Origin: Atribacterota bacterium
GTDB taxonomy: Bacteria; Atribacterota; Phoenicimicrobiia; Phoenicimicrobiales; Stramentimicrobiaceae
Reading direction: 5' to 3'
DNA length: 64,000 nucleotides
NCBI GenBank assembly: GCA_040767965.1
Contig: JAXGNR010000004.1
Coordinates: 672,001 to 736,000 of the forward strand
A model generated the notes under the pieces. That model worked only from the letters and a program-made list of their open reading frames with translations. It was not told where the DNA came from and did not search any database. The translations under genes and the position numbers were made by a program. Below are positions 8,326-11,470 of the stretch, one piece after another (the first letter of the stretch is position 1; each line of letters opens with the position of its first letter).

Positions 8326-8539
8326 TTCCACCCCCACATTTATCCTCCCATCAAGGGGAGGAAGTGAAAGGTTTTATCCTTCCACCAAGGAAAAAAATAA
8401 CTCTTCATCGGGGGGAGGATAATAAAAAAACTAAATCTTCCTTTAATGGGGAAGAAATGAGAAAAGTTAAATCTCTCCATCAAAGAAAAAGATTCAAAAA
8501 AGTTACATCTCTCCTCAAAGGGAGGAAATTGAAAAAGTT
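8326..8539. repeat. Hairpin tandem array A1 (~6 units of ~36 bp)
   Basis: Head cacccccacatttatcctcccatcaaggggagga followed by degenerate TAAATC-pyrimidine arm-TCAA-purine arm-A-rich linker units. Confidence 0.8.
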
Positions 8540-8592
8540 GTCATTGCGAGCCTGCCCTTAACTACTGTTAAGAGATAGGCGTGGCAATCTCA
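8540..8592 (+). repeat. REP/RPE-like palindromic element, left copy
   Basis: gtcattgcgag...cgtggcaatctca; reverse complement of the 10851-10885 element at both ends. Confidence 0.7.
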
Positions 8593-8726
8593 TCCATTTA
8601 TTCCCAAAGTATTCAGGGTATACATTAAATAAGTTTGCATATAATATTGTTAACTTTCAATAAATCTCACCACATTTACTACATACTACATGCTCGATAC
8701 CCGATACTGATTACACTTCGCAAAAC

Positions 8727-9202
8727 CTACCAATTTGCCGGCGGTGTAGTGCTAATGCGTATTCTTCCTGTTACCGGGGTCATGATTACATATAATGTTT
8801 TATTTCCGCCAGTTTTTAAGGTAACAGTTCCTCCCATGCTGGGAGTTCCTTTTTTATTAAAGTACACTTTATTGCTGGTAAAATTTGTATAGTGTAAATT
8901 TATATTGCTCAGCTTGATATCGTGAATCATTTCATCTTCCTCATAAACGCGATACCTGTCAAGAAAGGGTAAAAGTCTATTTTATAATAATTACCTGTAT
9001 ACATAGCCAAGCTCTGGCAATTTTTTAATATTGCTTCAAGCTGGCAGGCTGTTCTGTAAAGGTCTGTATTTGCTTTTGCAATGTAAAGACCTTTAACAGA
9101 AATAATAAATAATATTGAAATGACAGCTGCAATTATTGTTGCTTCAATGAGGGTGTAGCCATGGGAGTTAACAATGTTTTTTCTTTCAGGGATATTTTTC
9201 AT
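8727..9202 (-). CDS. FimT/GspH/ComGD-like minor pilin, split by an apparent frameshift near 8930-8965
   Basis: HG|YTLIEATIIAAV in ORF 8927-9202; YFNKKGTPSMGGTVTL...VTGRIRI in ORF 8727-8930. Confidence 0.75.
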
Positions 9203-9236
9203 CTTTTATTATTTTTATAATGTACTTTTTCTTTAT

Positions 9237-9264
9237 TATTCCCCATTTAACAGGTTTTAGACAA
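9237..9264 (-). promoter_or_regulatory. Candidate SigB/SigF-type promoter for the FimT-like gene
   Basis: Minus strand TTGTCTAAAA-N11-GGGAATA, ~35 nt upstream of the ATG; same motif upstream of pilA. Confidence 0.4.
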
Positions 9265-9287
9265 AAAATATATTATGTTTGCATGGT

Positions 9288-9415
9288 AAATTTACCCCCG
9301 CTTTATCCTCCCCTCAGGGGAGGAGATGGAAAAAGGATAAATCCCTCTTTCAAGGGTTTGGAAATGGGGAAAAATTTAATCCTCTACTCAAGGAAGAGAA
9401 AAATTAATAAGTTTC
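9288..9415. repeat. Hairpin tandem array A2 (~3 units)
   Basis: aatttacccccgctttatcctcccctcaggggagga head plus two degenerate units. Confidence 0.75.
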
Positions 9416-9661
9416 TTCATTTCTTATTTTAATAAACAAGATTTCTATTTCTTTTTGATAGAAGTTAATATGATACCCGATCCGGTAATTTCCTTTTCTT
9501 ATTCTAAAAAACGAAATCCTGCCTTTTTTTATTTTCTTAACTCCTGCTGGTAGTGGATCATTTTTTAGAGTTTGGATCATTTCTGTAATTTTTTTTAATT
9601 CTTTATCTGGTATATTTTGAACATCTTTTTTAATGCTTGCTTTGTATAGTAGTTTATACAC
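9404..9661 (-). CDS. RelE/ParE-family toxin
   Basis: MYKLLYKASIKKDV...DPLPAGVKKIK...FRIRKGNYRIGY; overlaps the upstream antitoxin gene. Confidence 0.85.
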   Translation of the reverse strand: MYKLLYKASIKKDVQNIPDKELKKITEMIQTLKNDPLPAGVKKIKKGRISFFRIRKGNYRIGYHINFYQKEIEILFIKIRNEETY

Positions 9662-9893
9662 TCATTCCTCTGTTTTTAAGGTATTGATCCCATTCTTCTT
9701 CATCTATAGAAGGTTCATTTCTTCTCATCTCAACTGTATGTATATCATCTTCATCTTCTTTTATTTTATTTAATTTCTCTTTAATAGCTTCAGTTACAAA
9801 GTAATTTATAACAATTCCTTTTGATTTGCAGTATTTTCTCAAATCATTTATGACATCTTCCGGAATTCTAGTACCTAAAGAAACTTTATTCAT
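9654..9893 (-). CDS. Ribbon-helix-helix antitoxin
   Basis: MNKVSLGTRIPEDVINDLRKYC..FVTEAIKEKL followed by an acidic C-terminus; RBS GAGGTG before ATG 9893. Confidence 0.75.
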   Translation of the reverse strand: MNKVSLGTRIPEDVINDLRKYCKSKGIVINYFVTEAIKEKLNKIKEDEDDIHTVEMRRNEPSIDEEEWDQYLKNRGMSV

Positions 9894-9905
9894 GAATATC
9901 ACCTC

Positions 9906-9943
9906 TGATAGCATATGATAGCATTAGCTATCATTGATGTCAA
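9906..9943 (-). promoter_or_regulatory. Sigma70 promoter with overlapping operator repeats for the RelBE-like operon
   Basis: Minus strand TTGACA-17-TATCAT with extended TG; TGATAGC at 9906 and 9916, inverted GCTATCA at 9927. Confidence 0.75.
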
Positions 9944-9963
9944 GGTAAGATACTCCGTCTTCC

Positions 9964-10280
9964 AATTCACCCCCACCTTTATCCTCCCCCCTCAAGGGGG
10001 AGGAAATGGGAAAAGGTTTTTTCTCCCGTCAAGAGGGAGGATAATAAAAAAGAAAAATCTTCCTTCAAGGAGAATAAGATTGAGAAAGATTAAATTCTCT
10101 CTTTAATGAGGGGAGAAAATTGAGAAAGAATAAATCTCCCCTTCAAGGGAGGATAATATTGGAAAAGTTTTAATCCTTTTCTCAGGGAGGAAGAAAACAA
10201 AAAATTAAATATTCCTCTGAAAGTTAGAGAAATAAAAAAGAGTAAATCTTTTCCTTGATAAGGAGGAAGAGGGAAAATTG
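9964..10280. repeat. Hairpin tandem array A3 (~8 units of 36-40 bp)
   Basis: aattcacccccacctttatcctccccctcaagggggagga head; units start near 9978, 10017, 10054, 10091, 10131, 10170, 10206, 10243. Confidence 0.85.
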
Positions 10281-10317
10281 CTTATGTTATATAAGCATGC
10301 TTGATACAATTTTATAA

Positions 10318-10533
10318 CTATACCAGATTCTTTAATTCTTCAATTGTAATATCAGCTTTTTTAATAATTGAATTTAAAGTGCCTTTTCTGATTTCCTTAT
10401 GATTAGGAACAATTAATGAAATATTTTTTTCAGGATTATGTAAGAAGATATGGCTACCTCTTTGGTGATCAATGATAAAGCCAATGCGATGAAGTGCCTT
10501 GACTAATTCCCGCCCTGAGAATACTTTGCTCAT
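10318..10533 (-). CDS. hicA: HicA-family toxin
   Basis: [14 protein letters not shown]...[19 protein letters not shown]. Confidence 0.92.
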
Positions 10534-10745
10534 AAAGAAACCTTAACTTCTTTTGCAATAAATCCTGGTTTTGTTTTTATCTCATTTACCTTTTCCATTC
10601 CTTCAAGATAACATTTAATTGCTTCTTTTGCATTTTTTAACGCTTCTTTTTCATCCATCCCTTGAGTATAACAACCATCAAGAGCAGGGACAGAAACATT
10701 AAATCCCCCTTCTTCGGCTGGTTCTAATATAACCATAAATTTCAT
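10530..10745 (-). CDS. hicB: HicB-family antitoxin (short form without DNA-binding domain)
   Basis: [46 protein letters not shown]. Confidence 0.92.
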
Positions 10746-10850
10746 ATAAAATACTCCTTTAATCATTAGTTTTGCATTTTAGTCAATTATTAATTATTAG
10801 TCTATATTATATTCTATCATTCATTTAAAAATAATTATAGCATATATGTA

Positions 10851-10885
10851 TGAGATTGCTTCGTCACTTCGTTCCTCGCAATGAC
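10851..10885 (-). repeat. REP/RPE-like palindromic element, right copy
   Basis: tgagattgcttcgtcacttcgttcctcgcaatgac. Confidence 0.75.
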
Positions 10886-10905
10886 AAAAAAGAAACTCTC
10901 TTGCA

Positions 10906-11470
10906 AATTCACCCCCACCTTTATCCTCCCCCATCAAAGGGGAGGAAGTTGAGAAAGGTTTAATCCTCCCATTAATAGCGAGGAAATGGGGAAAGGTTTT
11001 TTTTTTCTCCTACCGTCAAGAGGGAGGATAATAAAAAAGAATAAATCCCTCTTTAAAAGGAGAGGATAATAAAAAAGATAAAATCCTCCTTTAATGAGGA
11101 TAAAATCGAAAAAGACTATAATATCCTCTCATGAAGGGAGCCGAAAAATGGGGAAAATTTTAATCCCATCCTCAGTCTCAAGGAGAAGTGAAATAATAAA
11201 AAGAGCAAAATTCCCTTAATTGGGAGATATAGAAAGACTTCAAACCCTCTTCTCAAGGAGGGAAAAATAAAAAAGAGTAAATTCCTCCTCTTAACCCTTA
11301 TTTAATAGATATGAAAATAAATTATAATATCCCTCAAAGGGAAGTAAACAAAAAAGTTAATATTCCTCAGAAAGTTAGTAAAATAATAAAAACAATAAAT
11401 TTTCTTCCAAAATTATTGAAATAAAATTTCAATCCATTTCAAGGGTAGTAGATTGGAAAATAGTAAATCA
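10906..11470. repeat. Hairpin tandem array A4 (~14 units, decaying to the right)
   Basis: Same aattcacccccacctttatcctccccc head as A3; mostly ~37-40-bp periodic hairpin plus A-rich linker. Confidence 0.8.

Follow-up and report, generated by a model that had tools for sequence, protein, structure and literature searches.

The four hairpin arrays that lie among pilus genes at positions 8326, 9288, 9964 and 10906 of the window (the whole stretch of 64,000 nucleotides that was analysed) are best explained, taken as a whole, as local amplifications of a long-known and widespread repeat and not as a new cassette system; we regard this reading as probable. All four arrays are on the plus strand and each opens with a conserved head (8326–8367, 9288–9327, 9964–10006 and 10906–10947), which is a sequence variant of the published BoxC/PIT/TM intrastrand-triplex repeat. 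The heads were located by reading of the sequence and by a repeat finder (families D6, D9 and D10), and the common head and single orientation described in an initial annotation of this DNA are both seen. The alternation of arrays with minus-strand genes, also described there, was borne out by open reading frames and Pfam. The alternating genes, all on the minus strand, are a FimT-like gene, a ParE gene with its antitoxin, HicAB and PilD; the content given earlier as FimT-like, RelBE-like and HicBA corresponds to Pfam N_methyl pseudopilins, ParE_toxin, HicA_toxin and HicB. Since all neighbouring genes are on the minus strand, each array lies 3' of one unit and 5' of the next (Table 1).

Table 1. 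Genes, arrays and hairpins of the locus, in window positions. G005 is a related genome.
Feature	Positions	Strand	Basis and remarks
Large pseudopilin gene	6559..8172	-	Pfam N_methyl; 537 aa; start 150 nt from head 1
Array 1	8326..8540	+	Head 1 (triplex motif, one mismatch, read on the minus strand) and 4-5 hairpin units
G hairpin copy	8541..8592	-	Regex; second repeat family with conserved ends and a variable palindromic middle
FimT-like minor pilin	8727..9202	-	Pfam; two ORFs in the assembly; 68% nt identity to the G005 gene
Array 2	9288..9410	+	Degenerate head 2 and 2 units; overlaps the ParE stop codon; missed by the triplex scan
ParE-like toxin (9404-9661) and ribbon-helix-helix-type antitoxin (9654-9914)	9404..9914	-	Pfam
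Array 3	9964..10280	+	Head 3 (perfect 9-triplet purine-motif triplex, minus strand, 9966-10004) and 7 hairpin units
HicA toxin (10318-10533) and HicB antitoxin (10530-10766)	10318..10766	-	Pfam
G hairpin	10853..10886	+	20 nt ahead of head 4
Array 4	10906..11470	+	Head 4 (triplex motif, one mismatch) and about 9-13 units weakening with distance
Prepilin peptidase PilD	11467..12219	-	Pfam A24_N_bact; Peptidase_A24, positions 2-82 of 104

In relatives the large pseudopilin occupies open frames of 644–845 aa (about 800 aa, against 537 aa here). The PilD reading frame is shortened by a stop at 11647, and homology to the PilD of G005 continues to 11467 (73% nt identity over 11467–12214). In the FimT-like gene, contigs of three metagenome runs carry one additional base behind position 8964.

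Behind each head follow degenerate hairpin units of 35–42 nt. A hairpin parser called 5, 3, 8 and 10 units in arrays 1 to 4, with hairpin starts mostly 29–47 nt apart; the larger spacings correspond to units below the calling score. The earlier counts were about 6, 3, 8 and 14; array 4 decays to vestiges that reach about 11470. Over 56 nt, heads 3 and 4 share 89% identity, and head 2 is the most degenerate of the four. Tandem Repeats Finder flagged only 8449–8536 (period 36, 72% matches) because the array units are only 60–70% alike. Genome-wide (both strands, 2.33 Mb) there are 462 pyrimidine-arm hairpins, which form no more than 16 clusters with at least two members, and the three biggest clusters (4, 4 and 3 hairpins) all fall inside the window arrays. 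It is confirmed that the arrays exceed chance expectation and that the four of them are real. A second family, the G hairpins of Table 1, has 48 regex matches in the genome, about 25 of them convincing on reading; a near-identical copy of the one at 8541 is present in the related genome G013.

The sections of Holder 2015 (PMC4666352) drawn on here define the intrastrand triplex-forming motif (ITxF criteria) by three consecutive stems, one of pyrimidines, one of purines complementary to it and one that mirrors the purine stem, with triplets G.G-C, A.A-T or T.A-T, stems of 6–15 nt, loops of 1–6 nt and at most one mismatch. A further mark of the class is triplex folding of the oligonucleotide in vitro (CD, NMR). 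With our own scanner (stems ≥7, first loop ≤7, mismatches ≤1), run on the minus strand, head 3 gave 9 triplets without mismatch, head 4 gave 9 with one and head 1 gave 7 with one; these three heads contain all three blocks. Head 2 and the hairpin units were not detected by the scan, apart from one AT-rich site at 10212. The TMECO consensus of the same source (CCCTCNCCC, 3–6 nt, GGGNGAGGG, 3 nt, GGGNGAGGG) is matched exactly by four sister elements of this genome, three in C16 and one in C19. None of the window heads matches it exactly because their stem sequences differ, and the head is therefore a sister variant and not TMECO proper.

In the same sections, which cite Hoyne and Maher (2000, 2002) and Bachellier (1999), BoxC/PIT elements are traced in E. 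coli to the 1990s, with neither a function nor a means of spread. BoxC/PIT/TM repeats are described as intergenic, beside genes of all classes and without transposase or integrase; inverted pairs of types A and B are common, and loci with triplex repeats are more rearranged than controls (PMC4666352). The elements studied here share the pyrimidine stem, purine stem and mirrored G-rich stem with short loops, the intergenic position, the extreme sequence conservation, the frequent inverted pairing of two subtypes, the lack of a linked transposase and the variation of loci between strains. The arrays had been put forward as an undescribed system, a proposal that depended on their matching no described repeat family. 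The triplex scan and the four TMECO matches place the head within such a family. TMECO is reported from 262 proteobacterial genomes in that source, whereas the present heads occur in Atribacterota-like genomes and in many phyla. In the sections of Holder 2015 used, we found no mention of extended arrays in which hairpin-only units follow a single complete motif in direct orientation, nor of an enrichment beside toxin–antitoxin (TA) genes. Two features are unusual here: the length and the direct, one-sided layout of the arrays, and the over-representation of TA genes beside the heads.

The scan of the genome and its relatives that the initial annotation had suggested was carried out. A 22-nt head with at most four errors gave 12 matches in the genome (four in the window, four in C17, one each in C16 and C19 and two weak ones), that is, about 10 copies. 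The head was found in 40 of 61 related genomes, against 0–1 for a reversed-pattern control, and in at least 128 stretches of many phyla. The purine arm, although not part of the search pattern, is present in nearly all of the cross-phylum rows shown. These cross-phylum heads mostly lie beside housekeeping genes (126 nearest ORFs). The copies are thus dispersed, intergenic, conserved and beside varied genes, as is characteristic of the triplex-repeat class. Inverted pairs of type B and head were seen elsewhere; inside the window there is none.

Among 46 heads in relatives, 26 have one hairpin, 13 have two, four have three, two have four and one has seven, and array length forms a continuum. The seven-unit array, in G013, consists of a three-unit block that is repeated, with units 1 and 4 identical, which shows block duplication in a young array. 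A conserved linker common to arrays of different genomes was found at only one of the 9 heads of this genome, at 4 of 61 in relatives and at 3 of the 123 heads from the scan; there is thus no common multi-unit element.

According to the model that we favour, each array would be a non-coding intergenic mosaic seeded by one copy of a BoxC/PIT/TM-type repeat, the head. Along it, a pyrimidine arm is followed after a loop by a purine arm and then, after a short loop, by a G-rich block mirroring the purine arm; on the G-rich strand an intrastrand triplex of the purine motif is predicted. The units behind the head would be hairpin-only copies lacking the third block. Presumably they were duplicated locally and in tandem to one side of the head, whether by slippage during replication or by unequal exchange where the DNA forms structures, and subsequently decayed. 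Heads would be dispersed repeats, gained and lost independently in intergenic DNA without mobilising the neighbouring genes, and the arrays may well be neutral. The TA operons would be autonomous units, long resident in the neighbourhood of pilD, where such genes have a hot spot.

The distribution of TA genes is a difficulty for this model. Here nine of the 10 heads neighbour TA genes, and 7 of 12 TA loci neighbour heads. Five genomes of the same family show 16 of 70 heads adjacent to TA genes (18 of 113 nearest ORFs); the remaining 54 are not beside TA genes. At cross-phylum heads only 4 of 126 nearest ORFs are TA-type or related (MazE, PemK, Fic and an MNT-like nucleotidyltransferase). The enrichment of TA neighbours in this genome and family is strong and counts against our explanation because a purely independent repeat does not predict it.

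It would be expected if the heads were recombination sites of an integron-like platform without integrase that builds TA islands, with small selfish cassettes (TA pairs, AbiE, DUF559) excised and inserted at heads by a trans-acting, structure-specific nuclease or by homologous recombination over the 39-nt core. Arrays and cassettes alternate not only in the window but also at C17, where four heads about 1 kb apart accompany HicA, PemK, MazE and ParE genes, and further in G001:C22, G006:C5 and G005:C124. As in integrons and integrase-less attC clusters, structured repeats that all point the same way are interspersed with small cassettes that carry promoters and are often TA pairs; the promoter-like site before the ParE cassette (9943–9915) is strong, with 11 of 12 consensus positions and a TG extension. 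We nevertheless consider such a platform, which the initial annotation had proposed as mobilised in trans, distinctly unlikely. As that annotation had stated, no integrase is visible: in the assembly, which is 98% complete, there are only two tyrosine recombinases (PF00589), both more than 90 kb from the arrays, one being XerD (340 bits, cut-off 330) and the other XerC-like (321 bits, cut-off 335). Against the integron integrase model TIGR02249 they score 125 and 135 bits, far below the cut-off of 265. In contrast to integron repeats, the sequence itself is conserved across phyla and not the structure alone, and most copies, namely the 54 family heads mentioned above and nearly all of those in other phyla, lie beside ordinary genes. 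attC sites, which are recognised by structure (R''-L''...L'-R'), stand in a fixed orientation at the 3' end of each cassette. Here, by contrast, genes may point either way with respect to the head, their direction at C16, G001:C22 and G013:C98 being opposite to that in the window and at C17, which argues against attC sites.

Orthologous loci argue in the same direction. In G005 (genus g6) the order FimT, ParE, HicAB, PilD, AbrB is kept, and the ParE and HicAB cassettes are 84% and 86% identical in nucleotide sequence to those of the window, but there is no head where arrays 2 and 4 sit, heads being present elsewhere. The homology stops at operon borders, not at heads. This does not fit the repeat-delimited mobile cassettes that had been claimed, although two extra cassettes of G005, a second HicBA and AbiE, each adjoin a head as a platform would have it. 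The same cassettes persist without flanking heads in G005, G024, G014 and metagenomic loci. In G003, PilD, FimT and the pseudopilin are present, and both cassettes and heads are missing. Of 20 metagenomic PilD loci, 10 have TA genes and one has a head. The closest PilD relative in that scan is 58% identical (one shorter match reaches 64%) and the scan therefore gives no strain-level comparison.

In the best of the public sequencing runs, a share of 0.33 of the words sampled was present, against shares of 0.05–0.07 in three RNA runs; contigs are interrupted at the repeats, and only covered parts were interpreted. A joint of 9288 to 9964, which would delete exactly array 2 and the ParE cassette, occurs in contigs of two studies and could be taken as evidence for cassette excision. 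Its far side extends for just 29 and 45 nt, so absence of the cassette and a better-kept head 2 are indistinguishable. Strain variation is seen in a metagenome contig where 10977 is connected back to 10161, so that array 3 has a different set of units; the remaining joints, with short sides of 22–32 nt, were left out of use. In metagenome contigs the core of array 3 (9966–10004) shows very high depth with loose ends on both sides, and the G hairpin at 10853 has a depth of 158–306 in its bin and many loose ends in four metagenome runs.

A partner enzyme is suggested by other genomes, in which small DUF559 endonuclease genes are found between an inverted pair of this repeat class; the DUF559 enrichment that had been suspected is thus positive there. 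Because of this flanking, DUF559 is likely to be the partner enzyme of the class. This genome has no DUF559 gene, a further point against a platform operating here, and its heads are accordingly orphans. Across the 61 relatives there is no clear dependence between the two, heads being present in 11 of 14 genomes with DUF559 and in 29 of 47 without. In G035:C105 a DUF559 gene lies between two direct heads, as a cassette platform would predict. RAYT was rejected as partner: the single RAYT-like Y1 gene of the genome (264 aa, C4:184368) lies between copies of another inverted repeat.

The REP-like character given to the sequence was borne out. The repeats resemble REP, BIME and REPIN elements as short GC-rich intergenic palindromes that are sometimes clustered into mosaics, and resemble the RAYT association in that a partner gene, here DUF559 in other genomes, lies within an inverted pair of its own repeats. 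They differ in copy number (about 10 per genome versus hundreds), in the direct and not alternating orientation of the units and in the candidate partner, an endonuclease and not a HUH enzyme. With about 10 heads and no RAYT flanked by cognate repeats, they do not belong to the REP/REPIN class.

A further reading, which we hold to be rather doubtful, is that breakage or recombination is concentrated at the triplex-motif heads, which would recruit small selfish operons such as TA pairs, AbiE and DUF559. Integron-like TA islands would then arise without integrase, and the one-sided arrays would be scars of repeated cutting or replication stalling at the head, with slipped repair afterwards.

The hairpins might alternatively be selected for a function in cis, as insulators made of stacked weak intrinsic terminators or mRNA 3'-end stabilisers that separate the TA operons from the pilus genes; this seems unlikely to us. 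Eight terminator-like sites (six distinct hairpins) lie within the arrays on the minus, coding strand, against 2.6 ± 1.8 expected for the whole region and both strands, while the single plus-strand site falls outside the arrays. Each array begins directly after a stop codon, and transcription that has passed heads 1, 2 and 3 next meets promoter-like sites. Although these terminator-like hairpins hint at a cis function, their stems are short (5–6 pairs) and their T tracts interrupted, and at C16, G001:C22 and G013:C98, where the genes are reversed relative to the head, the hairpins precede A-rich tracts. Arrays 2 and 4 are missing from the G005 locus, and PIT elements are reported to have neither promoter nor terminator activity (Hoyne and Maher 2002, as cited in PMC4666352).

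Folding calculations bear on a different possibility, that the arrays encode a repeat RNA (type III antitoxin-like or a protein-sponge small RNA) or are a decayed CRISPR. The arrays do fold far better than mononucleotide shuffles (z −3.8 to −12.7), and the units retain hairpin potential despite differing stems. By minimum free energy, the minus strand has a slight advantage in arrays 1, 2 and 4 and the plus strand in array 3, so neither strand is consistently preferred, and T.G and C.A mismatches in the stems are equal (five each); both observations fit a palindrome at the DNA level. A co-variation test of each arm against the arms of other units was dropped as biased, since the stems had been chosen by maximising their own pairing. 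Selection may act on unit structure. In type III TA systems, tandem repeats that are nearly identical lie immediately upstream of a gene for a ToxN-type toxin and share its strand. The unit length of 36–40 nt is one that we take to resemble such antitoxin repeats, but the units here are degenerate, the neighbours are ParE, HicA and pilins, the toxins are of type II with protein antitoxins, and the head stands beside unrelated genes in many phyla. Rfam returned 25 matches at E values up to 10, all under the gathering score. The earlier statement that the arrays are not CRISPR holds, as the 35–42 nt period is wholly repeat without unique spacers; the best Rfam CRISPR repeat model scored 17.5 bits, its gathering score being 39. 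We consider an RNA or CRISPR origin largely refuted and highly improbable.

The repeat class thus reaches AT-rich, uncultured Atribacterota-like bacteria with its 39-nt core almost invariant, and one complete motif can seed long, direct and decaying hairpin arrays. Such arrays should not be annotated as CRISPR, small-RNA genes or integron cassettes. The link to DUF559 and the array features open experiments on the origin of these repeats and on the destabilisation of their loci. If the heads were indeed recruiting hot spots, array length would record how often a junction had been used. Within this bacterial family, triplex motifs are preferred neighbours of TA operons.

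Four arrays lie on the plus strand within 8326–11470 of the window, which is C4:672001-736000 in a genome of 2.33 Mb (33% G+C, 30 contigs). Each opens with a head made up of a C-rich box, a 5-nt spacer, a pyrimidine arm, a loop with a TCAA end and a purine arm, behind which follow units with a period of 35–42 nt (TAATC-like lead, pyrimidine arm, loop, purine arm, purine-rich linker). Sequence, repeat and hairpin analyses bore out the initial annotation's observation of four arrays in the pilus locus. Of its unit numbers (about 6, 3, 8 and 14) those for arrays 2 and 3 were reproduced, whereas the recount gave 5 and 10 clear units for arrays 1 and 4, plus vestiges reaching 11470. 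Pyrimidine-arm hairpins number 462 genome-wide but form only 16 clusters, the three largest lying in the window arrays; such clusters are nearly restricted to these loci.

The genes of the locus are all on the minus strand and encode a large pseudopilin, a split FimT-like pilin, ParE with antitoxin, HicA with HicB, and PilD, whose frame is interrupted at 11647. The FimT-like, PilD and AbrB-family membrane protein genes are each split or shortened in the window assembly; their counterparts in G005, a relative from another genus, are single frames. One additional base was present behind 8964 in contigs of three runs, and the split frames represent either real decay or assembly indel errors. The pseudopilin has 537 aa, open frames of relatives encoding about 770–845 aa with Big_1/invasin-like domains; the missing remainder seems to be a separate 110-aa ORF.

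A literature search with strings of the sister element of the head (type B) led to Holder et al. (2015; PMC4666352). According to that article, BoxC, PIT elements and TM/TMECO are the same intergenic repeats, whose pyrimidine stem, purine stem and mirror G-rich stem form an intrastrand triplex in vitro. They neighbour every class of genes, frequently occur as inverted pairs of type A and type B, and lie at loci more rearranged than control loci among E. coli strains; its authors never encountered transposases or integrases with them. The published TMECO pattern matched four elements of the window's genome exactly, and in a triplex scan of the minus strand head 3 gave 9 triplets without mismatch, head 4 gave 9 with one and head 1 gave 7 with one; the units behind these three heads did not pass. 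These matches show that the head is a sequence variant of the BoxC/PIT class, a described repeat family, the outcome that the initial annotation had itself named as refuting the "undescribed system" it proposed.

With a 22-nt pattern and up to 2 mismatches, the head was found in 40 of 61 related genomes (12/21 and 27/30 in two families, 0/9 in other families of the phylum; reversed-pattern control 0–1). When one genome of each prokaryote species was scanned, the exact head turned up in at least 128 stretches, the matches listed belonging to Atribacterota, Thermodesulfobacteriota and other "Deltaproteobacteria", Omnitrophota, Elusimicrobia, Nitrospinota, Nitrospirae, Chloroflexi, Acidobacteria, Actinomycetota, Alphaproteobacteria, Patescibacteria and others. 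In nearly all rows shown, the head is followed by the purine arm, a part not included in the search pattern, and often a related inverted element lies 50–90 nt upstream.

The strongest support for reading the heads as cassette borders is their adjacency to toxin-antitoxin (TA) genes in the window's own genome. It holds about 10 heads (four in the window, four on contig C17, one each on C16 and C19), and those on C17, about 1 kb apart, alternate with small operons of MazE-type plus ParE-type, PemK, HicA and RhuM/Fic. A phmmer search with the TA proteins gathered during the analysis found 15 TA ORFs forming 12 loci; 7 of these have a head within 1 kb, and a TA neighbour is present at 9/10 heads. 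All 70 heads listed from five genomes of the same family were then counted, with crude gene calls (longest ORFs, ≥55 aa): at 16 heads the closest ORF on one or both sides was a recognised TA gene and at 54 the neighbours were of other kinds, TA genes making up 18/113 nearest ORFs, a share well above that in the genome. Across phyla, heads are not cassette borders. Nearly all of the 126 nearest ORFs among the matches listed are ordinary metabolic, envelope and translation genes; TA-type or related genes account for four (MazE, PemK, Fic, one MNT-like) and DUF559 genes for three, with no recombinase among them.

Whether heads are cassette borders is settled by the pilus operon of relatives. In G003, PilD, FimT and the large pseudopilin are contiguous, with neither cassettes nor heads. 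G005 is collinear with the window (see table), and nothing head-like was seen in it at the positions of window arrays 2 and 4; homology of the shared cassettes stops at the operon borders, 9399–9950 and 10318–10746, not in heads. A head adjoins each of G005's two extra cassettes, which keeps a weaker link between heads and cassettes alive. Among 20 metagenomic contigs with PilD 49–58% identical to that of the window, 10 carry TA genes beside PilD (an antitoxin or ParE on the upstream side and HicBA on the downstream side; MNT/HEPN and PemK also occur) and one carries a head. The pilD flanks have thus long been a hot spot for TA operons in the lineage; cassettes persist without heads, and heads and arrays come and go intergenically, leaving gene content unchanged. 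TA landing sites recur at the pilD flanks and in the pilX–pilM gap across Atribacterota-like genomes and metagenomic contigs, the operon types being HicBA, ParE, MNT/HEPN, PemK and AbiE.

Features of the window and of related loci (bare coordinates, window positions; L numbers, loci compared; G005 rows in window order)
Feature	Location	Remark
Array starts 1–4	8326, 9288, 9964, 10906	+ strand
Large pseudopilin	6559-8172
Separate ORF	6086-6418
FimT-like	8727-9202
PilD	11467-12219
AbrB-family membrane protein	12252-13357
G hairpin	8541-8592 (-), 10853-10886 (+)
RAYT-like Y1 gene	G000:C4:184236-185125	window's own genome
TA landing places	9404-10766, 11467-12219; L199-L224, L160, L158, L156, L166
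DUF559 between inverted triplex motifs	L280, L281, L283, L288, L279, L282, L289, L296, L302-L304, L295:16205-16761, others	several phyla
Low-complexity tandem motifs	8640-8720; intergenic regions of L156, L158, L160, L166
FimT	G005, 1st	68% nt to window
ParE cassette	G005, 2nd	84% nt to window
G hairpin + type B element + head with two units	G005, 3rd
Extra HicBA pair	G005, 4th
HicAB	G005, 5th	86% nt to window
PilD	G005, 6th	73% nt to window
Extra AbiE pair	G005, 7th
Head with four units + type B element + G hairpin	G005, 8th
AbrB-like gene	G005, 9th	65% nt to window

The 98% complete assembly encodes two PF00589 proteins, each >90 kb away from the locus. The XerD model accepts one of them, the second scores just under the XerC cut-off, and both are far under the cut-offs of the integron-integrase models. 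Three Y1 transposase matches were found in the genome, the RAYT-like one being bordered by a different inverted repeat and not by the head. That inverted repeat, which flanks a gene of 264 aa, is a third repeat family of the genome; most of the 61 relatives have long Y1 genes of RAYT-like type. With no recombinase near, cassettes without heads in relatives and ordinary head neighbours, the proposed new cassette platform is not supported, while the REP-like aspect ascribed to the arrays was apt.

The suggestion to look for DUF559 also proved apt, triplex motifs standing beside DUF559 genes in other genomes, which makes DUF559 the likely partner gene of the repeat. The three small DUF559 endonuclease genes at cross-phylum heads abut them. 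In the 61 relatives, 7/9 small DUF559 genes or fragments lie between or adjoin triplex motifs, with a reversed type B about 7 nt past the stop and a head about 37 nt ahead of the start. In five genomes from other phyla that carry heads, a motif lies ≤35 nt from 6/10 DUF559 loci. In the genome family around G065 (Devosia), 16/28 loci have a strict motif ≤150 nt away, motif density being 2.76 per kb near DUF559 vs 0.06 per kb over the remainder of these loci (roughly 49-fold). In E. coli K-12, TMECO lies 170 nt past the stop of ycjD, and a duplicated fragment of the gene's own 3' end lies downstream. Inverted motif pairs without a gene look like the DUF559 module minus its gene. A literature search, with subscription journals outside its scope, found no paper mentioning DUF559 or YcjD alongside boxC, TMECO or intrastrand triplexes. 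DUF559 gave no match in the window's genome, whose heads are therefore orphans at present.

The G hairpin, a second repeat family with about 25 genomic copies, has conserved 8-nt ends and a variable palindromic middle, both halves of which change together; it often lies 20–130 nt ahead of a head, and no partner gene was found for it. In four metagenome runs it showed very high depth and many different flanks and is therefore common to many organisms. Besides the hairpin families, intergenic DNA of the lineage is full of further short low-complexity tandem motifs of several sequence types.

Array length varies continuously. Of 46 heads of relatives with enough flank, 26 have a single hairpin, 13 two, four three, two four and one seven; cross-phylum heads are mostly single-hairpin among the matches listed, and the window holds the longest arrays. 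The seven-unit array of the relative G013 is young: its unit 4 is identical to unit 1 and its unit 6 nearly identical to unit 3, so a three-unit block was duplicated. Slippage or unequal exchange enlarges satellites in this manner. In one related-strain contig 10977 is joined to the earlier position 10161, which gives array 3 a different unit make-up in that strain. The first units follow one and the same order in arrays 1, 3 and 4, which suggests that duplication within the locus also involved whole arrays. Since the third block is restricted to the first unit and growth is one-sided, we propose that the structure-forming head would stall replication or be cut, and that slipped repair would then copy its hairpin part. 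The arrays fold strongly on both strands without strand preference, as expected if the units are DNA palindromes.

On the coding (minus) strand the arrays contain eight terminator-like sites, equal to six distinct hairpins, where 2.6 ± 1.8 sites were expected for the whole region and both strands, and a near-consensus promoter, located just after head 3, is predicted ahead of the ParE operon. At this locus the arrays may therefore reduce read-through from one gene unit into the next. Loci L155–L174, picked for multiple heads, were used for layout only. Gene orientation relative to the head varies: it is opposite in the window and on C17, and the same on C16 and on contigs of two relatives (G001:C22, G013:C98). 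PMC4666352, citing Hoyne and Maher (2002), reports no terminator activity for PIT elements. This report and the opposite gene orientation elsewhere make a side effect more likely than a selected role. The arrays thus consist of decaying hairpin modules, amplified locally and attached to a triplex repeat of BoxC/PIT type, at a site in the type IV pilus operon that is a hot spot for TA genes.
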